A stretch of 64,000 nucleotides of DNA from Bdellovibrionales bacterium (GTDB taxonomy: Bacteria; Bdellovibrionota; UBA1018; CAIMNF01). Where the stretch lies: contig JAFEAO010000002.1 in assembly GCA_018266375.1 (NCBI GenBank), forward strand, positions 189,582-253,581, given 5' to 3'. A program made the translations under genes and the position numbers. Of the stretch, positions 1,974-43,906 are shown in pieces (within the stretch, counting starts at the first letter, position 1; each line of letters opens with the position of its first letter). The notes below the pieces were generated by a model. The model was given only the letters and a program-made list of their open reading frames with translations, made no database searches and had not been told where the DNA came from.

Positions 1974-2591
1974 CTAGTAGAACGGGATCGGACCGATAGT
2001 CTGACCGTTGTTCAAGGTCAGGTACACGAGAGCTTGGTTGATGTAACCGTAACCTTGTGTGTATCCGCCGTAACCCGCTTGGCTCATTTGAAGCGTGTGA
2101 ACGATATCAAAAGACATCGATTGTACGCAGAGCTGAGATTGTTGGTTCGGATACGCGCCGTAGCCGTAGTTATATCCGGTTAAAGAATAAAGAACTTGTG
2201 GTTGCAATTGAACTACACCGGTCATCACGCCGCCTTGTGGAGCGATCGCGATTTGAAGTGTGCCGTATTGACTTTGCTTCGGTTGATATTGAATCAAACC
2301 TTGAGTAGCGCCGGCACTTCCCATAGCGACGGTGCCGTGTGCGCCGGGACTAGTGCTGTTGGCTGGCAATGTACCTGCAAGGATGATTGCCGAGTTCATT
2401 TGTGCGTTTGTAGCGGTGAAGCCGAAAGCGCCTGAAGTGAGTGGAACGCAACCGCCTTGGGTCGCGCCGTAATAGCCGGTTTGGTTACCGTAGTAACCTT
2501 GGCCGTTAGGGTAGGGGTTATTGTTGTTGTTGCCGCAAGCGGTGAGGCCGACGGCAAGTAACGCCAATAGGATATTGTTAATCGTTTTCAT
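1974..2591 (-). CDS. Lipoprotein, G/Y/N/Q-rich low-complexity, unknown function
   Basis: Signal peptide with lipobox LTAC. Mature part starts GNNNNNPYPNGQGYYGNQTGYYG. RBS aaggagagagagt precedes the ATG. Confidence 0.7.
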   Translation of the reverse strand: MKTINNILLALLAVGLTACGNNNNNPYPNGQGYYGNQTGYYGATQGGCVPLTSGAFGFTATNAQMNSAIILAGTLPANSTSPGAHGTVAMGSAGATQGLIQYQPKQSQYGTLQIAIAPQGGVMTGVVQLQPQVLYSLTGYNYGYGAYPNQQSQLCVQSMSFDIVHTLQMSQAGYGGYTQGYGYINQALVYLTLNNGQTIGPIPFY

Positions 2592-2791
2592 ACTCTCTCT
2601 CCTTAGTAATACCCTAAGTAAAGCAAGGGGGATGCCAACTCCTGTGTCTAAGACTCAGTCACTCGAAGTCTTCGAGAGTATTGCGATTTTTCCATAATAA
2701 ATAAATAAAATTGATGCCAATGCGGCCAGAGTTTAGGCAGCAAATCGTCTAAAATTTAGACATATGTTACGCATAAACGGGGAAACACGGA

Positions 2792-3841
2792 TCAAGCGAC
2801 CGGACTGACACGTTTGCTCGTCTGTGACTTTGCGATCTGATCGAGCGCAGGAAAGAGATGATCTCCGCTTCCGTCGAGTCGCAACGATTTGGATTGAAGA
2901 AACGCCGGATTGAATATCTTCGAGATGTACTTCTGGCCGCTATCGCACAGGATGGTCACGATGCGATTGCCCGGCCCAAGCTTGCGAGCCATGAGGTATG
3001 CGCCGCAAAGGTTTGCCCCGGTCGAGGAGCCCACGAAGAGGCCTTCGGTCCGCACTATATAATGGACCATGTCCAAGATGTTCTGGTCACTCAACTGAAA
3101 CGCATGATCGACTTCGCAAGGACGGACGTTTTCGGTCACGACGCCTTGGCCGATCCCCTCCGAGATCGTTTCGCCCGGAGTGACTTCGGCCACGCCGCGG
3201 GTAAAGTAGTTATACATCGACGAGCCGACCGGATCGGTGCAGCCGACTTGGATTTTCGGATTCTTCTCTTTTAAGAATTTAGAAATACCTGCAAGCGTAC
3301 CGCCGGTACCGATCGCGCACACAAAGCCCGTGACTTGTTGGTCCGACTGTTCCCAAATCTCAGGACCCGTCGTTTTGTAGTGGGCCATGTAGTTGGCTTG
3401 GTTATCGAACTGATTGATGTAGTAGCCGCCTTCCTCTTTTGCGATCCGCTCCGCGACTTTGCGGTAGTTGGCCGGATCAGGATAGGTCGCCGGCGGAATA
3501 AGCAGAACCTCGGCACCCATGCCACGCATGGTATCGATTTTTTCGGGAGCTTGGTTATTTGGAATCGTGATCTTGGTTTTGTATCCGAGGATGTTGCCGA
3601 TGAGCGCAAGCCCGATGCCGGTATTGCCTGAGGTGCCTTCGACGATGAGTCCGCCCGGTTTCAAGCGTCCGTCTTTCTCCGCTTGGCGAATCATGCCTAG
3701 CGCCGCGCGATCTTTTACGCTACCGCCCGGATTCATGAACTCGGCTTTGCCGTAGATCTCACAGCCGGTGAGCTTGGAGAGCGACTCAAGGTAGATGAGC
3801 GGCGTGTTCCCGACCGATTGAATGAAGTTGGATTTTTTCAT
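2792..3841 (-). CDS. PLP-dependent cysteine synthase / cystathionine beta-synthase family enzyme
   Basis: Motifs NPGGSVKDRAA (PLP lysine), GTSGNTGIGLA and GTGGTLAG. Start placed at MKKSNFIQ (ATG 3841), which forms an ATGA overlap with the upstream gene's stop. Confidence 0.9.
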   Translation of the reverse strand: MKKSNFIQSVGNTPLIYLESLSKLTGCEIYGKAEFMNPGGSVKDRAALGMIRQAEKDGRLKPGGLIVEGTSGNTGIGLALIGNILGYKTKITIPNNQAPEKIDTMRGMGAEVLLIPPATYPDPANYRKVAERIAKEEGGYYINQFDNQANYMAHYKTTGPEIWEQSDQQVTGFVCAIGTGGTLAGISKFLKEKNPKIQVGCTDPVGSSMYNYFTRGVAEVTPGETISEGIGQGVVTENVRPCEVDHAFQLSDQNILDMVHYIVRTEGLFVGSSTGANLCGAYLMARKLGPGNRIVTILCDSGQKYISKIFNPAFLQSKSLRLDGSGDHLFPALDQIAKSQTSKRVSPVA

Positions 3842-4668
3842 ATAAAAACCATGACACCGTAAAACAGTGCACAGAGGATACACCAATTTCTTGTGTTTTT
3901 ATAGGTTGCTTCGTTCATCGTGCGCTGTAAATTCTCCATAAGCATATAAACGACGGTGAGGCTGACTACGATAACCGCAATCGCATTTAAATAGCCGACG
4001 GCATGAAGGGATTCGACAAATCCGGTCGTCCGGAGATGGTTGAGCATGATGGTCACGAGTTCCACCGTGATCAAAATGTAAGAGTATTTAAAAATAGATT
4101 CGAAGTGATAATTGGTGAGCGCAAAGCCGATCCAAAGAATCGCGAGCCATGAAATGCCGTCATAAGACGCAAGGAGTGAGAGAGCGCCGATTGTAAAAGC
4201 GTCGCCGAGCTTGAGGTGGTTCAGCCCTTTGATTCGCTTGTTCCAATTCTTAGCGAAATTAAGGCCAAGCGCTACACCCAGGTAAATCACGGCGCGAACC
4301 GGAAAAGAATTGAAAATTTCGATTTCGCGTAAAATCGGGTGTGCGTACGCCGCTCCCACGAACACGAACGGAAATACGGTGAGAATAAAAAGCAGCGTGT
4401 GTTGATCGAGCGAGCGTTGCTCGGAACCGAGCGATGCAGGTTTGACGATGGACTTAAGAAGCGCCGACAGCAATCCCAAGAAATCGTATCGAAAAAAATA
4501 GACCAAGTAGAAGGCACATACCGTACTGACTAAGGTCGCAAGTTCGGCTGACGACTTGTTCCAATGTAGGAGGTGCTGGCTCACGTCGCTGACCAAGGAT
4601 TGCGGAATCGGGAGAATGGCGGCGAGGGTCGCGAGGAAGCCTTCTACAAGGTATTGAAATGTGGTCAT
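3838..4668 (-). CDS. Polytopic membrane protein, distant UppP/BacA-like (catalytic motifs not conserved)
   Basis: About 8 hydrophobic segments. By-eye colinearity with E. coli BacA (VEGF..LP near the N-terminus, GDAFTIGALSLLA region). The SSTGH and SRSG motifs are absent. Start placed at MTTFQYL. Confidence 0.55.
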   Translation of the reverse strand: MTTFQYLVEGFLATLAAILPIPQSLVSDVSQHLLHWNKSSAELATLVSTVCAFYLVYFFRYDFLGLLSALLKSIVKPASLGSEQRSLDQHTLLFILTVFPFVFVGAAYAHPILREIEIFNSFPVRAVIYLGVALGLNFAKNWNKRIKGLNHLKLGDAFTIGALSLLASYDGISWLAILWIGFALTNYHFESIFKYSYILITVELVTIMLNHLRTTGFVESLHAVGYLNAIAVIVVSLTVVYMLMENLQRTMNEATYKNTRNWCILCALFYGVMVFI

Positions 4669-4789
4669 GTTGTGCTCAAGTCTAGCATAAAACACATAGC
4701 ATAAAAGAACGTATAAACGGGCGGGTGACTTACACTGAACTTACATTGCAATGCTTCATGGATTAGGGCGGACGTGGTCCAATAAGGGT

Positions 4790-5701
4790 ATGAAGACAAC
4801 ATATCGAGACTCATTGTTTTACGCGTTACTGGGGACGATCTGGGTAGGCCTCATTTACTGGATTCCACGCCTCCTCGGACCAAACGGCCTTTACGGCGAT
4901 TGGTTTACGACCAATACCCTGCTCAAATTTTCCGTGCTTTTTATCGGATTGTCGCACCTGACGATCGTTGCGATGAGCCTTGCGTTCCACCGTAGCCACA
5001 CACACCAAGCGGTGAAGTTTAATCCCATCATCGACGGTATCATGCAGACCTGGCTTTGGATGATGACCAGTATGTCGAAACTCGACTGGGTGAGCGTCCA
5101 CGTTTATCACCACACTTATTCGGACACCGAAAAGGATCCTCACAGCCCGGTCCAAAAAGGCCTCGCTCGCGTCTTTTTTTGCGGGGTCGTGGATTACAGC
5201 CGCGCAAAAACCTGGCCTGAAGTTTTGAAAATTCGTAATCGCATTCCGACCAATGCTTACGAGCGCTACATTGCTCGCCACTTGTTCCAGGCGCCGATGA
5301 TTCTCGCGGGTGTGCTCATGGTTTGTTTCGGACCGCTTTACGGCACGATCTTCGCGGCGATGAACTTTGCGATTTCCCCGCTCTTTGCGGTGGGGGGAGT
5401 GAACGCACTCGCGCACTCGATCGGTTATCAAAATTACGACGCCAAGGATGAGAGCCGCAACCTCGGTTTCTTGTTTTTTTTGAACTGGATCATCTCGGGT
5501 GAGCTCGATCACAACAATCACCACAAGTATCCAAAGAGCCCGAGCTTCGCGCATCGCTGGTTTGAATTCGACATCGGTTGGATTTATATTCGCATGCTGC
5601 GCCAAGTCGGTCTTGCGAAAGTGACCGGTAAAATTCCGAAGTATGCACCGGCAGTCGCTAGCGAAATCTCAGTGGTCGAACCGCTTGCCGAATTGTCTTA
5701 A
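4790..5701 (+). CDS. Membrane fatty-acid (acyl-CoA/acyl-lipid delta-9 type) desaturase
   Basis: Three histidine boxes: HRSHTH, HVYHHTYSDTEKDPHSP and HNNHHKYP. An alternative start is at 4751. Confidence 0.87.
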   Translation: MKTTYRDSLFYALLGTIWVGLIYWIPRLLGPNGLYGDWFTTNTLLKFSVLFIGLSHLTIVAMSLAFHRSHTHQAVKFNPIIDGIMQTWLWMMTSMSKLDWVSVHVYHHTYSDTEKDPHSPVQKGLARVFFCGVVDYSRAKTWPEVLKIRNRIPTNAYERYIARHLFQAPMILAGVLMVCFGPLYGTIFAAMNFAISPLFAVGGVNALAHSIGYQNYDAKDESRNLGFLFFLNWIISGELDHNNHHKYPKSPSFAHRWFEFDIGWIYIRMLRQVGLAKVTGKIPKYAPAVASEISVVEPLAELS

Positions 5702-28594: not shown

Positions 28595-28611
28595 CTTCTT
28601 TGGAGGATGCT

Positions 28612-29580
28612 ATGAGCAAGATTCTGTTAGCCATCGATCCCTTGGAAAAAAAACTCAAACCCAGTGAGGGTAGTTTGCGCGTTCTTCGGAATTGGCTCCG
28701 CCAAACCGGAAGCAAAGTCGAAGCTGTTTACGTTCAATCCGAGTCGGTGGACTTGACTGAAATGGCCGAAGCGGTGCACCGTTTGGACCTTTCACTTGAG
28801 CACGATATCGAGGCCAGGGTGCTGGTGACTTCGGCAAATACGCAAAAAGAGGTCATTAAGAGGTTCGTGGAATACATACGTGAGTCGGAAGTGGAATTCG
28901 TGGTTTTGCTTTCGCACGGACGCAAATGGCTAAGTCGGCTCGTCCTCGGAAGCTTTTCTGAAGGAATTCTGGCGGATTCTCCCGTACCCGTGGTGTTTCT
29001 CGGATCGGAGCCCACTCCGGGAGCGCACGCGCTTTACCGGGTGATGTTTCCAACCGATTTTTCGGAAGCCTCTAAGAAGGCGTTTCAAAACTTCTTGGCT
29101 CAAGTCGAGACTTTCCGTCCGGATGTGATTTTATATCACTATCTGTCGACGACCGACTTTATCTACGAATATGCCGGAATCTCTTGGGACGGCTACCTTT
29201 TTACCGGCGCAACGATCAACGATCAACGCGATTGGGTCTATCAAGAAGGCGAGAATTGGGCACGCTTAGGCGTCGAGCACGGTCTTAAAGTGAAAGTCGT
29301 TGTCGAGGAAGGTTCGGAAAGCCCAGCGAAGGCAATCTTGAGCGCGGCTGATAAGTTTGAAGTCTCCTTGCTTGGGCTGGCATCAACCCAACGACCGCTT
29401 GAATCGGTCATCGTTGGATCGCTTGCTCGTGATGTCTTTCGGTCACGTAAGATGCCGGTGTGGGTGATGGGTCCGGCGTCCCTCAAGGAATACCGCTTCG
29501 TACCGGGGATCAGCGACGTCAATCGACCCAGCGTCGGACCGCTTCCAGCTGACGGCGCCGCCTTCGGCGATCATCCGTAG
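28612..29580 (+). CDS. Tandem universal stress protein (two UspA domains)
   Basis: ILLAIDP... and MFPTDFSE... start two Usp-like halves. GGAGGA RBS before ATG 28612. Confidence 0.82.
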   Translation: MSKILLAIDPLEKKLKPSEGSLRVLRNWLRQTGSKVEAVYVQSESVDLTEMAEAVHRLDLSLEHDIEARVLVTSANTQKEVIKRFVEYIRESEVEFVVLLSHGRKWLSRLVLGSFSEGILADSPVPVVFLGSEPTPGAHALYRVMFPTDFSEASKKAFQNFLAQVETFRPDVILYHYLSTTDFIYEYAGISWDGYLFTGATINDQRDWVYQEGENWARLGVEHGLKVKVVVEEGSESPAKAILSAADKFEVSLLGLASTQRPLESVIVGSLARDVFRSRKMPVWVMGPASLKEYRFVPGISDVNRPSVGPLPADGAAFGDHP

Positions 29581-30948: not shown

Positions 30949-31638
30949 TTATTTATCAGCATTGAAGCGATAGCCTTCGCCCGGAATGGATTGGATGAAG
31001 CGGGCAGAATCGTCCAACTTTTTACGCAAATAACAAACATGAGAATCAACGGTGCGATTGGTCACGAACACGTCCGTGCCCCAGACTTCTTTTAAAATAT
31101 GGTCACGGCCGAAAATCCGGTTCGGGCTCTTCATGAAGAGAAGCAAGATTTTGAACTCACGCGGAGTGAGGGAGACGTAGCCTTCTTTGCCGGCGATCTT
31201 CAAACGCTGCGAACCGAGTTCGAGCATGAGAGGGCCAACCGAAATGTGATCGCTTTCTTGGGACTCTTCTTGCAAGCGCTTTAGACGTCGCTCGACGCGG
31301 GCGCGAAGCTCCAGCGAATGAAACGGCTTCACGATATAATCGTCCGCACCCAAAGTGAAAGCGCTGATCTTGCTTGCGACGTCTTCTTTACCGGTCAAAA
31401 AGATCACCGGAGTTTTTTTGTGGTTGGGAATATTACGGATCTTTTGGAACAGCTCAAAGCCGTCCCCATCCGGAAGCATGAGGTCGATTACGATCAAAGA
31501 ATAGTTCTTTGAAGAAGCTTGTTTGAAGCCCAACGCAACGCTGTCAGCAGAATCGAGGGTGACGCCGATTGGAGTCAGGGACGCTACGACTGCTTCAATG
31601 ATTTCGTCGGAATCATCGATGACAAGAATGTTTTGCAT
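30949..31638 (-). CDS. OmpR/PhoB-family response regulator
   Basis: REC domain (ILVIDDS, VIDLMLPDGDG, DDYIVKPF) plus a winged helix (LTPREFKILLLF..., GYRF). Confidence 0.93.
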   Translation of the reverse strand: MQNILVIDDSDEIIEAVVASLTPIGVTLDSADSVALGFKQASSKNYSLIVIDLMLPDGDGFELFQKIRNIPNHKKTPVIFLTGKEDVASKISAFTLGADDYIVKPFHSLELRARVERRLKRLQEESQESDHISVGPLMLELGSQRLKIAGKEGYVSLTPREFKILLLFMKSPNRIFGRDHILKEVWGTDVFVTNRTVDSHVCYLRKKLDDSARFIQSIPGEGYRFNADK

Positions 31639-31706: not shown

Positions 31707-33851
<2,145 letters not shown>

Positions 33852-34067: not shown

Positions 34068-34436
34068 ATGGGTGACAAAAAAAACATTTTGATTATCGAA
34101 GACGATCGCGACATCCTCGAGGTTCTAAAGGATATCTTGGAATCGGAAGGCTACACCGTCGCCACGGCCGAAAACGGCAAGATGGGGATCGAGGTATTGC
34201 AGTCTTTGAGCGAACCTCCGAAACTCGTTCTGCTCGATTTGATGATGCCGATCATGGATGGGTTCCAGTTCCGTCAGGAACAGCTTAAAAACGATGCGTT
34301 CAAAACAATCCCTGTAGTCGTGATGAGTGCGGACGGACGCATGGAACTGAAAAAAGATAGAATCGGCGTCGATATTTTCTTGAAAAAGCCGCTCGATTTG
34401 GAAACTGTCCTTGATACGGTATCAGGTTTTTTTTAG
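34068..34436 (+). CDS. Stand-alone receiver (CheY-like)
   Basis: Motifs ILIIEDD, LLDLMMPIMDG, VVVMSA and LKKP. Confidence 0.9.
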   Translation: MGDKKNILIIEDDRDILEVLKDILESEGYTVATAENGKMGIEVLQSLSEPPKLVLLDLMMPIMDGFQFRQEQLKNDAFKTIPVVVMSADGRMELKKDRIGVDIFLKKPLDLETVLDTVSGFF

Positions 34437-34545
34437 ACCGGGTCGCATAAAACAAGCCATTTTTACGTTGTTAAAGCGTCATTATGTTTTCTTAACGAGG
34501 CGGATTTCACCTTGTACGGTCCCAGGAAAGGACTATCCTGGTCAT

Positions 34546-36099
<1,554 letters not shown>

Positions 36100-36114: not shown

Positions 36115-36149
36115 AAAGCGCCGGAGCGGAAACACTTCGGCGCTTTTTT
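36115..36149 (+). terminator. Rho-independent terminator after the ntrC-like gene
   Basis: aaagcgccggag / cttcggcgcttt stem with one mismatch, followed by a T-run. Confidence 0.7.
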
Positions 36150-36151
36150 GT

Positions 36152-36439
36152 CTACTGAACGCGATGTTCGGCGGTATAGACCTTGAGCAAGTCACGGAAC
36201 TGAATCAGTAGCGCGTGGATTTTGGCCCAATCCTGAGCATCGGCGGCCTCTTCCATTTGTCGGCCGATAATGCCGATGTCTTCAAACCCGAACGTCAGGC
36301 CGCTGCCTTTCATTTTATGGCCGATTCTGCGCAGGGTATCCGCGTCTTTACTTTCCTCGGCGGTAAAGGATTGCGCGAGGTCTTCGGCCCGGCGGCTCAG
36401 ATACTTTTCTTGCTGTTCTTTTGAAATGGTCATAGTCAA
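36152..36439 (-). CDS. Histidine phosphotransfer (Hpt) protein
   Basis: 95 aa with the Hpt signature RIGHKMKGSGLTFGF. Confidence 0.85.
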   Translation of the reverse strand: MTMTISKEQQEKYLSRRAEDLAQSFTAEESKDADTLRRIGHKMKGSGLTFGFEDIGIIGRQMEEAADAQDWAKIHALLIQFRDLLKVYTAEHRVQ

Positions 36440-36485
36440 TCCCTACCGAGTCCCTGAACAAGCGGCATGCTAACATGCCTCCGTG

Positions 36486-37661
36486 TCAAAATCGATATTT
36501 TATCTGTTTGAATGGCCGTCCTTCGAGTGAGTAACAAACTGCGGAGTAGATCGGGGATTTGCACACCGGACAGAACAAAGCGTGTGGTTTGTTGAGCCCT
36601 TCGATCAATACTTGCTCGATCATCGATTGCTTGGAGCAAATGCGACAGTCGACGGTGAACGAATTGCTCTTAATGTTTTCGCGCTTCTCCGGGATCTCTT
36701 CGCGGAGAAGGCGAGCTTTTTTATGAGCGGAATAGATTTGGAGATCCGCGATGTTCGCGCCGTTCGAGAAGACTGTGACCGGTCCGTCTTCGGAAATCGT
36801 GACGACCAGGGCATCGTCAAAATCATAAGAAAACCTTACGGAAGAGGTGTGACGCGTACCTTTAAATTCAGGGATTAAGCTGCGGCTTAATTCCGTGTAC
36901 TTGAGTTGCACCCCCGTGCAGAGGAGCTTTCCGTCCGGATCCAAGAAAGTGGCTCCGTCAACGTGGGAGAGGAGGTGGCAGATCATTTTGGTGTGAGAGT
37001 CGTTGGAGAGCGACAGATCCAGATCCCGTAAATCCTCGGGCTGGGCCGCATCAAGGATCGGGTCGGCGCAATCGTGTTTCAAGCACCAGACCAAGGTCGC
37101 ACCGACGCGGTCGGTGGGGCTCATGAAGTGGAACGCGAATTCGAGAATGCGGTTTAAAATCCCTTTGTCGATGTCAGCCACGCACTGAGAGACCTTCCAT
37201 GCCGCCGTTTTGACGTTGGGCTTGGTAAACCAGCGTCGATTGTCGTGGATGGTGAGACTGTCGCCTTGAAAAAACTTGGTGATGCCGGCAGAGCTCCGAT
37301 GAAACATGAGTCCGCCCGAAATCGGAAAACTCCGGATGAGTTGGATCTCGGTCGTGATGTAGCTCTTGAAGTTGACGAGCCCGGCAAAACGGTTCTTATC
37401 GTAGATTAGGAATGTCTGCTCCCCATCCGCAAGCTTGCGCGCGAGCGGGAGGTCGTCGGATTCGAGTGGCATGACCTCAACGTCTTCCAGATCTTCGATA
37501 TGCTCGGCGAAGATCGCTCCGTAGGAATTGATCTTGCCTTCATGCGTTTCCGGAATGAGCGTGTGTTCAATCTCCGAGAGTACCGACGGAGATTGAAGCC
37601 AGTATTGTTTCCGCATATTGACGCCGTTAGAGGTGAGTTCCTGTTGCAAGTATTCTTGCAT
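36486..37661 (-). CDS. DAC (DisA_N) fold protein with an unknown N-terminal domain and a C-terminal Zn-ribbon. Possible atypical diadenylate cyclase.
   Basis: By-eye alignment to the CdaA/DisA core: RVGATLVW, HVDGATF (DGA), KGTRHT (GTRHR with the last R replaced by T) and VVTISEDGPVTVF. The C-terminus has CRIC-x21-CPVC. Confidence 0.7.
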   Translation of the reverse strand: MQEYLQQELTSNGVNMRKQYWLQSPSVLSEIEHTLIPETHEGKINSYGAIFAEHIEDLEDVEVMPLESDDLPLARKLADGEQTFLIYDKNRFAGLVNFKSYITTEIQLIRSFPISGGLMFHRSSAGITKFFQGDSLTIHDNRRWFTKPNVKTAAWKVSQCVADIDKGILNRILEFAFHFMSPTDRVGATLVWCLKHDCADPILDAAQPEDLRDLDLSLSNDSHTKMICHLLSHVDGATFLDPDGKLLCTGVQLKYTELSRSLIPEFKGTRHTSSVRFSYDFDDALVVTISEDGPVTVFSNGANIADLQIYSAHKKARLLREEIPEKRENIKSNSFTVDCRICSKQSMIEQVLIEGLNKPHALFCPVCKSPIYSAVCYSLEGRPFKQIKYRF

Positions 37662-37796
37662 CCGATTATTTTACCAGTGGACGGCGGGGAATGGCTCGTT
37701 GCATTTTCTTAACAACGGACGTGGAGAAAATACCTCTGAAAAATGTGTACGGTTCTTGCTTGTACTACATAGCCATCTCATGGAAGGGGGGTAAAG

Positions 37797-38234
37797 ATGC
37801 CACAAGGGAGCAATCACAAGTCAGTGTACGTCGTTGAGGATGATTTGGAGCTCTCCACTGTTTTGGATCGCGTTTTAAAAAGCATTGATCATCGGGTGAC
37901 ACTGGACTGGTCGACGACTGCGGAGGAGGCGATTCAGACTCTGAACCGCGCTTGGAAGAACGGGGTAAAACGCCCCTACGACCTTATTATCGTGGACGTG
38001 TTTTTAGATGGGGATCAAAACGGGTTGGATCTCTGGAATTTGTGCAAGCGGGAGTATCCGGATATTCCGGTGGTGCTGACCAGTGCCCATAAATTAAACA
38101 GCCTTTTCCCAAAAGACATGGATCCGGACGATATTCCGATTTTCTTACAAAAACCTTTCAGTATTAACGAGTGCAAGAAGCTGTTTAAGACGCTGCTCGC
38201 CCCGCCCGACAACTCTGCTCAAGCGAGTGCTTGA
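37797..38234 (+). CDS. Stand-alone receiver domain protein
   Basis: Motifs VYVVEDD, IIVDVFLDGDQNG, VVLTSA and LQKPF. Confidence 0.85.
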   Translation: MPQGSNHKSVYVVEDDLELSTVLDRVLKSIDHRVTLDWSTTAEEAIQTLNRAWKNGVKRPYDLIIVDVFLDGDQNGLDLWNLCKREYPDIPVVLTSAHKLNSLFPKDMDPDDIPIFLQKPFSINECKKLFKTLLAPPDNSAQASA

Positions 38235-43120: not shown

Positions 43121-43660
43121 TCAGGCAGCGAGGCCGTGAACTTGCTGTATGTAGAAGTTGAGCTTACGCATGATATTGAACAGCGTATTGTCCTTGTGGA
43201 TGTGGCCCAAGAAGCGGAAGTGGTGGGTGTTCACGAACTTGCATTTTTCTTGTTCGTCGCCTGAGAACACCACGACACGGGCTTTCTTGTTTTGCCATTC
43301 CATCGGAAGGATCGGATCGAAGCGGAATAGCTTCTCAGCTTCGAGGAGGGTCTTCAATCCGTTCAACTTCGGCAAATTCCAGTCGAGAAGAATCATGTCA
43401 AACGCTTGCCCGACCATGATGCTCATCGCTTCGTAAGGGTCGTCGGCGACGGTGACTCTTACGCCCGGGTTTTCGCGCAACGCAAGCCTGATCAAATCCG
43501 AGAGCTCGCGATCATCATCGATGATCAAGATACGCTTTACAACCTTGGTCATGCGATGCATTGGTTGGGCGTGGGTCGATTCTGTGGCACGTTGCTTTGA
43601 ACGATGTTCAAACGATTCGTAATCCGTCAAATCTTTCTCCAGTCTAATTGACGTATTCAT
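43121..43660 (-). CDS. Receiver-domain protein with an N-terminal extension of about 40 aa
   Basis: Motifs ILIIDDD, LLDWNLPKLNG and VVVFSG. RBS aaggagg upstream. Confidence 0.8.
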   Translation of the reverse strand: MNTSIRLEKDLTDYESFEHRSKQRATESTHAQPMHRMTKVVKRILIIDDDRELSDLIRLALRENPGVRVTVADDPYEAMSIMVGQAFDMILLDWNLPKLNGLKTLLEAEKLFRFDPILPMEWQNKKARVVVFSGDEQEKCKFVNTHHFRFLGHIHKDNTLFNIMRKLNFYIQQVHGLAA

Positions 43661-43906
43661 AACAACCTCCTTGTTTGTTATTATGCGGCGTGACCCAGCG
43701 ACGAGCGCGCGGAACTGACCTCAGCATTTTTAGTTACACGTGAGTTAAGAGCAACAGCTGTGCCAAGGCGTTTTTGGGGTAATTTGGTACGGCTGGGTAG
43801 CGAGCTTCCGGAGCGCGGACCGGCATGGATTTGACGATCAACAGGGATTCACTGTATTTACATTCGTATTATTTACAGGGCGAAAAGGGTATGGAAGCAT
43901 ATCCTT

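Follow-up and report, generated by a model that had tools for sequence, protein, structure and literature searches.

Control of cyclic di-AMP (c-di-AMP) synthesis is understood for few diadenylate cyclases (DACs): it operates through GlmM and CdaR for CdaA, and through DNA structures for DisA. All DACs, to our knowledge, need two DAC domains placed head to head. A census of DAC architectures attributed to Galperin, in J Bacteriol for 2023, reportedly distinguishes 22 families, DACNK among them; secondary sources likewise speak of a 2023 division of DACs into 22 architecture families, and use the name CdaG for DACNG-containing proteins. In the literature searched, whose coverage does not extend to the 2023 census, no DAC was found to be linked with a histidine phosphotransfer (Hpt) protein or a phosphorelay. 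The 64,000-nucleotide stretch of a Bdellovibrionales bacterium analysed here (GenBank assembly GCA_018266375.1, contig JAFEAO010000002.1, positions 189,582 to 253,581; "the window" below is this whole stretch) encodes a DACNK-type member of the DAC family, 391 amino acids (aa) long, whose gene is followed by an Hpt gene and faces the divergent gene of a stand-alone receiver (REC) protein. This arrangement is conserved in a clade of Bdellovibrionota-like bacteria. The genes, domains and signals concerned are:

36486..37661, minus strand: gene of the DACNK-DAC-zinc-ribbon protein, 391 aa (open reading frame; Pfam DACNK and DAC above their cut-offs)
37218..37646, minus strand: DACNK domain, aa 6-148 (PF21753)
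36759..37112, minus strand: DAC (DisA_N) catalytic-type domain, aa 184-301 (PF02457; DGA 235-237, GTRHT 268-272, SEDGP 290-294)
36507..36674, minus strand: beta-rich zinc-ribbon domain, aa 330-385 (C339, C342, C364 and C367, plus C376)
36152..36439, minus strand: gene of the Hpt phosphotransfer protein, 95 aa from a TTG start (open reading frame; PF01627)
37797..38234, plus strand: gene of the stand-alone REC, 145 aa (PF00072), the most conserved neighbour of the DAC gene
37662..37796, unstranded: divergent intergenic (promoter) region of 135 nt between the DAC and REC genes (coordinates, sequence)
36115..36146, unstranded: GC-rich hairpin flanked by T and A runs (terminator scan, sequence)

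An earlier note, made from the letters of the window without database searches, had proposed a DAC core for the central part of the 391-aa protein, and the proposal is borne out. Pfam DAC (PF02457) matches aa 184-301 significantly (E 5.5e-10; 39.3 bits against a gathering score of 27), and the four sequence blocks cited in favour of the core are all present, at aa 185-192 (RVGATLVW), 233-253 (HVDGATFLDPDGKLLCTGVQL), 267-274 (KGTRHTSS) and 285-301 (LVVTISEDGPVTVFSNG). A full-length AlphaFold2 model was built from 73 family sequences (pLDDT 93.3, pTM 0.88); its seven top Foldseek matches in the PDB, and its only significant ones, are DisA from three species or DacA of S. aureus (E 2e-6 to 2e-5), all remaining matches having E of at least 0.1. 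By sequence, the family profile matches CdaA and DisA chains of the PDB weakly (E 8e-4 to 0.03). In the profile alignment to CdaA structures, G187-A188 corresponds to the GAL block, D235-G-A to DGA, G268-T-R-H to GTRH(R) and S290-E-D to the S-E-E loop. A DAC fold for the 391-aa protein is supported by the profile match and by the predicted structure.

DACNK and DAC both score above their cut-offs, with DAC C-terminal to DACNK. The N-terminal domain, which had been considered unrecognised, is Pfam DACNK (PF21753, 'DACNK, probable sensor domain'), with 54.8 bits against a cut-off of 27 over aa 6-148 and 57.5 bits for the domain alone. Nor does the architecture lie outside the known DAC classes, as had been thought: the combination of DACNK and DAC is already catalogued, and some relatives are already named 'diadenylate cyclase' by NCBI and others, wrongly, 'DisA' by JGI. 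The claim that the protein is unlike CdaA, DisA and CdaS was well founded. Assignment to the CdaA, DisA, DacZ or DS-2 class was rejected, with equivalog scores of 12-17 bits against cut-offs of 189-630: 14.2 against 188.8 for CdaA (TIGR00159), 12.2 against 201 for DisA (NF010009) and, in the DAC region only, 16.9 against 630 for the DS-2 anti-phage DAC (NF053872). There is no transmembrane (TM) segment (maximum Kyte-Doolittle 19-residue mean 1.17) and, as the Pfam scan of the protein gives DACNK and DAC only, no helix-hairpin-helix (HhH) domain, both as predicted.

A search of 5.8 billion proteins returned 78 homologues, nearly all with DACNK and DAC and the close ones with 97-100% coverage, and the DACNK domain alone is represented by 95 cluster representatives among 1.84 billion, almost all of 310-420 aa. 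Relatives were found in 320 species in a scan of one genome per species; the best 80 of these belong to Bdellovibrionota (Bdellovibrionales, Bacteriovorax and metagenome-assembled genomes (MAGs) of Oligoflexia), cyanobacteria, a planctomycete and many Acidimicrobiia. Judged by these searches, DACNK-DAC is a small family of essentially one architecture. It is catalogued bioinformatically and uncharacterised, and the 391-aa protein is a new member of it, the family being already annotated as diadenylate cyclase; by analogy with CdaG, its name may be CdaK. The family DAC profile, run against all six-frame segments of the 64-kb window, matches only the gene at 36486..37661, and Rfam, searched for c-di-AMP riboswitches and other RNAs, finds only a tRNA in the window.

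Linkage was surveyed among loci from genomes, metagenomes and assemblies with duplicates removed; the metagenome scan found nothing with the single protein as query and gave 77 loci with an alignment of the clade. The clade set comprises 22 loci with a DAC protein at least 39% identical to the 391-aa protein and at least 600 nt of upstream sequence, and the comparison set 62 loci of other clades whose flanks reach 1.5 kb or more on each side. A receiver is encoded within 1.5 kb at 16 of the 22 clade loci, against 2 of the 62 others (Fisher p 1.5e-10); in 15 of these 16 its gene lies immediately upstream in divergent orientation, and the protein, an orthologue of the REC of the window with 38-74% identity, keeps the phospho-acceptor Asp. 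An Hpt gene on the same strand within 4.5 kb downstream is found at 13/22 clade loci and at 0/62 others (Fisher p 8e-10), as judged by an Hpt profile made from clade members, which a very divergent Hpt elsewhere could escape. The clade Hpt may directly follow the DAC gene, follow OmpR-type or other receiver genes, or be fused to a hybrid kinase, as it is two genes 3' of the DAC gene at L086; in a Bacteriovorax MAG the DAC, Hpt and REC genes are spaced by 5-6 nt. Beyond the module the flanks vary by locus (flavodoxin/EamA, MscL/Omp85, CsbD/LCAT, ferritin/FliG, and TamB/BamA in the window), and the REC-DAC-Hpt module therefore travels as one unit. Thus, the pairing in the window, whose recurrence elsewhere had been raised as a question, does recur, and the Hpt/REC linkage is real, conserved and strongly enriched in the Bdellovibrionota-like clade.

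The Hpt gene lies on the same strand 46 nt 3' of the DAC gene, as had been described, if its TTG start is used; the distance is 52 nt with the ATG at 36433 (93 aa), which is the choice of an independent gene call on an identical public Logan contig. Its product matches PF01627 with 32 bits against a gathering score of 24.6, and the phosphorylatable His is H41, in IGHKMKGS (HxxKG context), which is kept in 12 orthologues. The 145-aa REC retains the complete set of receiver residues (D15/D16, D67, T95 and K119), and EDD, the phospho-acceptor Asp and KPF are invariant among 16 orthologues. Both hallmarks of a multistep phosphorelay, the Hpt His and a receiver pocket with acidic, Asp, Thr/Ser and Lys residues, are accordingly encoded beside the DAC gene. 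A terminator scan of the minus strand found no terminator-like site in the DAC-Hpt spacer, and the GC-rich hairpin 3' of Hpt (36115..36146) is likely to be a terminator shared by the DAC-Hpt transcript and the convergent NtrC-type gene described below; for these reasons co-transcription of DAC and Hpt is probable. The spacer also contains a perfect 6-bp hairpin, GGCATG-TTAG-CATGCC (36464-36479, minus strand), with no T-run 3' of it, which could be a processing or stability element or functionless. Neither a sigma-70 nor a sigma-54 consensus was found in 37662..37796, and no sigma-54 promoter was found 5' of the DAC or REC gene, matches across the window being at chance level.

On balance it is somewhat probable that the 391-aa protein synthesises a cyclic dinucleotide and that a receiver of the phosphorelay gates this activity. 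Domain architecture, fold, invariant active-site positions, the probable co-transcription of DAC and Hpt and the clade-specific linkage with REC and Hpt are shown by the analysis; the activity, the identity of the product and the direction and mechanism of the coupling are points that we infer. It would be a cytosolic three-domain DACNK-type member of the DAC family, with a catalytically competent central DAC domain that makes a cyclic dinucleotide, by default 3'3'-c-di-AMP. Two of its DAC domains would pair head to head for synthesis, and DACNK and the zinc ribbon would control access to the active site or assembly. In the Bdellovibrionota-like clade the cyclase would be the output of a multistep His-Asp phosphorelay, in which phosphate would pass from a sensor kinase to a receiver, to Hpt and then to the stand-alone receiver encoded divergently beside the DAC gene; once phosphorylated, this receiver would switch the cyclase through protein-protein contact.

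Several points weigh against this account. Because the 391-aa protein has no receiver domain, its coupling to the relay is drawn from gene neighbourhood only. The closest relatives (L085/L089, 62% identity) keep the REC gene with no Hpt gene nearby, four further clade loci (L091, L092, L002 and L088) have neither, and the linkage is absent from the cyanobacterial and actinobacterial members examined. The similarity to solved DACs is weak at the sequence level, as the family-profile E values given above show. The protein and most of the family lack the second Arg of the RHR motif, no member combines it with DGA, and given this deviation the chemistry of DACNK-DAC proteins could differ or be lost. 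Experimental work on any DACNK protein was not found in the literature searched.

The surroundings of the DAC gene outside this clade are heterogeneous: cyanobacteria, Acidimicrobiia and others have genes for CAP, GAF, Ser/Thr kinase, SnoaL, ABC ATPase and occasional histidine kinases as neighbours. In a cyanobacterial MAG (L020, 6565-7968 and 4870-6561) the start of the DAC gene overlaps the 3' end of a gene for a cyclic nucleotide-binding histidine kinase, which is preceded by a REC-thioredoxin-reductase fusion; this is another kind of two-component link, not conserved in the other cyanobacterial loci examined. Within the clade, L088 (P0050, 40% identity) has a gene for a 1099-aa LRR-Roc-COR (ROCO) protein (2319-5618) upstream instead of a receiver. 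A contig labelled 'Nitrosovibrio sp. Nv4' (CALPVV020000001.1) shows the same tblastn matches at a constant offset, and an identical Hpt, as a module-bearing metagenome scaffold (L006 and L087), and may be mis-binned. The homologue in Williamsia sp. D3 (P0061; L167, AYTE01000004.1, 1-11374) is a DACNK-DAC-zinc-ribbon protein of 457 aa whose gene is flanked by that of a 1760-aa helicase and by those of HicA toxin, KAP NTPase, MobC and relaxase. Such surroundings resemble a mobile element or a defence locus and differ from the relay genes of the window. Since an actinobacterial relative is so placed, the DACNK-DAC family may be used differently among phyla.

The replacement of RHR by RHT had been noticed from the sequence, and the motif indeed reads R270-H271-T272, with D235-G236-A237 intact. 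An alignment to the family profile of 152 unique DAC domains, drawn from four or more phyla, showed D235, A237, G268, R270, H271, S290, D292, G293 and P294 to be invariant. About 112 of the 152 sequences, the 391-aa protein among them, have T, S, N, A or G after RH, and in these G[T/M]RH plus one of the five residues is paired with DGA. The remaining form, with R at this position, occurs in 39/152 sequences, all from Acidimicrobiia-type loci (e.g. P0060, L039, L046, L051, L062 and L075), and there GMRHR is paired with DLA. Canonical DGA and RHR occur together in none of the 152, and the DLA and RHR changes never occur apart; this pairing is no proof of compensatory change, because the DLA/RHR group may be a single lineage.

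Published work places the substrate contacts of DACs at the first two residues of DGA (Asp and Gly), at the residue preceding RHR and at the first Arg of RHR. Single mutants of these residues are inactive in DacM, an enzyme whose activity has been assayed in a DAC-free E. coli background. In M. tuberculosis DisA only the triple RHR-to-AAA mutant was tested, and its activity was lost; the literature searched yielded no data for the second Arg on its own. Enzymes with more degenerate motifs are functional: PanS cyclases are active although their motifs read DGF and GGR. DS-2C proteins, in which DACNG and DACNH sensor domains precede DAC, make c-di-AMP (bioRxiv 10.64898/2026.08.10.743927 and ...743972). 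As the mutational tests concern the first two residues of DGA and the first Arg of RHR, and as degenerate-motif PanS cyclases are active, the RHT replacement is weak evidence for inactivity. The invariance of the other active-site positions argues for selection for catalysis, and the DAC site of the family fits such selection.

The same data bear on a pseudo-enzyme or receptor, an option already raised in the earlier note. Here the DAC-like domain would only bind a nucleotide, be it ATP, c-di-AMP or some other, and without making a messenger the protein would serve the relay as a regulatory adaptor, binding for instance Hpt or a receiver. RHT in place of RHR, a family without a single member that has both canonical motifs, and the weak similarity to proven cyclases all speak for it. 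That the Asp, the first Arg and His, and the S-E-D-G-P loop (aligned to SEE(T)G of CdaA) are unchanged in 152 sequences goes beyond the usual needs of binding, and active DACs with more degenerate motifs exist; a purely binding role is therefore considered unlikely.

DACNK is a putative sensor or regulatory domain, the Pfam DACN* domains being described as hypothesised sensory modules; its invariant residues are E41, G48, G80 and W144. The AlphaFold model of the domain alone (pLDDT 93.3) has DisA chains as its best PDB matches in Foldseek, at non-significant E of 0.04-0.08 (probability 0.8-0.89, TM 0.41). A permissive profile-profile alignment sets the N-terminal domain against the DAC domain of the same protein collinearly across 114 columns, with secondary-structure elements in order and one deletion only, which removes the RHR helix. 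It pairs G48 (SYGAIF) with G187 (RVGATL), G80 (LADG) with G236 (VDGA) and G126 with G293 (SEDG), the paired N-terminal glycines being invariant or near-invariant; three such Gly-Gly pairs arose in 1 of 150 column shuffles, a count made post hoc. By hhalign the N-domain profile does not match the DAC profile significantly (P 0.35, a score reached by 63% of column shuffles), it matches no DAC among PDB sequences, and Pfam assigns the domain to DACNK only, not to DAC. The chance that DACNK may be a degenerate DAC-like fold is put at roughly even, as a lead and not a finding: since the sequence searches are unsupportive, the idea is drawn only from the weak Foldseek matches and the post-hoc collinearity count.

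A more specific version of the gated synthase would make DACNK a degenerate DAC duplicate without the RHR helix, so that the protein holds a pseudo-dimer of a dead and a live DAC that the receiver opens or re-pairs, with c-di-AMP or a non-canonical nucleotide as product. Such an assembly would resemble the C1/C2 halves of class III adenylyl cyclases, and the family-wide departure from DGA plus RHR hints at a non-canonical (e.g. asymmetric) product, but as a whole it is an improbable elaboration.

The C-terminal zinc ribbon, CRIC-x21-CPVC, was correctly identified from the sequence, with Cys at 339, 342, 364 and 367 (C339-x2-C342-x21-C364-x2-C367) and an extra C376. The four cysteines are invariant in a 44-member alignment of the clade, and the CxxC...CxxC motif recurs family-wide, in about 102 of 177 unique sequences of both motif types; not every member has it, and the short actinobacterial forms lack it. 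Pfam assigns no family to the tail, the best match being a double zinc ribbon with E 0.11.

If the DAC is active, its relation to the relay could still run the other way or be indirect: its product might act on kinases or regulators, or the genes might merely be co-regulated, with the receiver not a controller. There is a precedent in the sensor kinase KdpD, whose USP domain binds c-di-AMP. As a class, USP domains figure among the c-di-AMP-binding domains listed in PMC10249747, and a tandem-USP protein is encoded at 28600..29580 (plus strand), 7 kb from the DAC gene, a proximity not shown to be meaningful. A conserved neighbourhood, moreover, gives no direction. Against this stand two features of the module: its most constant partner is a stand-alone receiver without an output domain, a kind of protein that as a rule works through binding to a target protein, and every gene of the module other than that of the DAC protein belongs to the relay. 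Coupling in this sense is considered quite unlikely.

Two further functions are very improbable. A conflict or anti-phage signalling cyclase, as in the DS-2C and PanS systems, is suggested by the weak DS-2 match in the DAC region and by the Williamsia homologue among a large helicase, HicA, KAP NTPase and relaxase, but a score of 16.9 bits is far below the NCBIfam cut-off of 630, no PADLOC model matches the 391-aa protein or three relatives, and the clade neighbours are relay and housekeeping genes (TamB, BamA, SOD) without a linked effector gene. Hardly more credible is a DisA-like scanner whose zinc ribbon replaces HhH, binds nucleic acid and modulates the cyclase while the relay genes set expression only: the layout, DAC followed by a small C-terminal binding domain, is analogous, zinc ribbons often bind nucleic acids, and some relatives carry the JGI name 'DisA', but NF010009 falls far short of its cut-off, linker and HhH are missing, the tail is optional in the family and no DNA-repair genes are linked.

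The pair was described in the earlier note as embedded among receiver proteins, and six REC-containing genes are indeed found between 30949 and 43660. Besides the 145-aa REC they are:

34068..34436, plus strand: second stand-alone REC, 122 aa (PF00072, 75.5 bits)
34411..36099, plus strand: NtrC-type sigma-54 activator, REC-AAA+-HTH_8, convergent with Hpt (Pfam)
31707..33851, minus strand: REC-PAS-GAF-HisKA-HATPase sensor histidine kinase (Pfam)
30949..31638, minus strand: OmpR-type response regulator (open reading frame)
43121..43660, minus strand: REC-domain gene (Pfam)

The first four of these lie within 7 kb of the DAC gene, and several of the five have counterparts at other DAC loci. The 122-aa REC best matches the REC just 3' of Hpt in the Bacteriovorax loci L003, L004, L005 and L008 (tblastn, 32-35% identity), the OmpR-type regulator has an orthologue (tblastn, 43-46% identity) whose gene separates DAC from Hpt in L006/L087 and L007, and orthologues of the NtrC-type activator with 44-46% identity lie near the DAC gene in L001, L006/L087, L007, L086, L090 and L093. 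The open reading frame of the activator starts at a TTG that overlaps the preceding REC gene, and its receiver domain does not begin until aa 59; translation more probably starts from the ATG at about 34546 (MTTQNSN...). The sensor kinase at 31707..33851 is a candidate phosphodonor of the relay. A perfect sigma-54 consensus, TGGCACAGCTGTTGCT, is present at 43750-43765 (minus strand), about 90 nt 5' of the REC gene at 43121..43660, and may be a target of the NtrC-type activator; sigma-54 matches with up to two mismatches are at chance level across the window.

In the literature searched there appears to be no description of the clade-wide REC-DAC-Hpt module, of the family-wide lack of DGA paired with RHR, or of a DACNK domain that may be DAC-like. 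The module offers a directly testable case of a link between a His-Asp phosphorelay and a DAC, and a handle on an uncharacterised DAC family found across Bdellovibrionota, cyanobacteria, Planctomycetota and Acidimicrobiia. Two features of this family, its deviating motifs and a 'sensor' domain that may descend from a DAC-like fold, are relevant to the remodelling of DAC active sites, a topical matter since the description of defence DACs making cUA. Should the pseudo-dimer switched by a receiver prove real, it would be the first two-component-controlled DAC pathway, in predatory Bdellovibrionota-like bacteria.

Among described systems the closest is the DACNK-DAC family itself (PF21753 plus PF02457), with which the 391-aa protein shares domains, their order, a cytosolic nature and the range of 310-420 aa, whereas the motif deviation, the zinc-ribbon tail and the Hpt/REC link are additions to what the literature searched describes of the family. 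With CdaA/DacA and DisA it shares the DAC fold and the alignable DGA, GTRH and acidic S-E-(E/D) loop. It differs from CdaA in lacking the three N-terminal TM helices, from DisA in lacking the linker and HhH, and from both in having RHT for RHR and other regulatory domains. The DS-2C and PanS proteins are likewise divergent DACs, some with degenerate motifs or N-terminal 'sensor' domains, and are active, but they have N-terminal domains of their own, a defence-island context and a membrane effector, in contrast to the relay context, the lack of an effector and the lack of a PADLOC match here; a DS-2C/CdaG-type defence DAC was rejected on its NF053872 score, the absence of a PADLOC match and the relay and housekeeping neighbours. 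In the REC-GGDEF diguanylate cyclases PleD and WspR, a phosphorylated receiver switches a dimerisation-dependent synthase of c-di-GMP. The receiver-gated DAC proposed here would share this logic with an unrelated catalytic fold; in PleD and WspR the receiver is fused to the enzyme, whereas in the DAC module it is separate and divergently encoded, and Hpt is present. We know of no case in which a relay acts on a DAC. KdpD is a known contact between c-di-AMP and a two-component system, in which the messenger acts on the kinase, whereas in the proposed DAC module the relay would act on the DAC.

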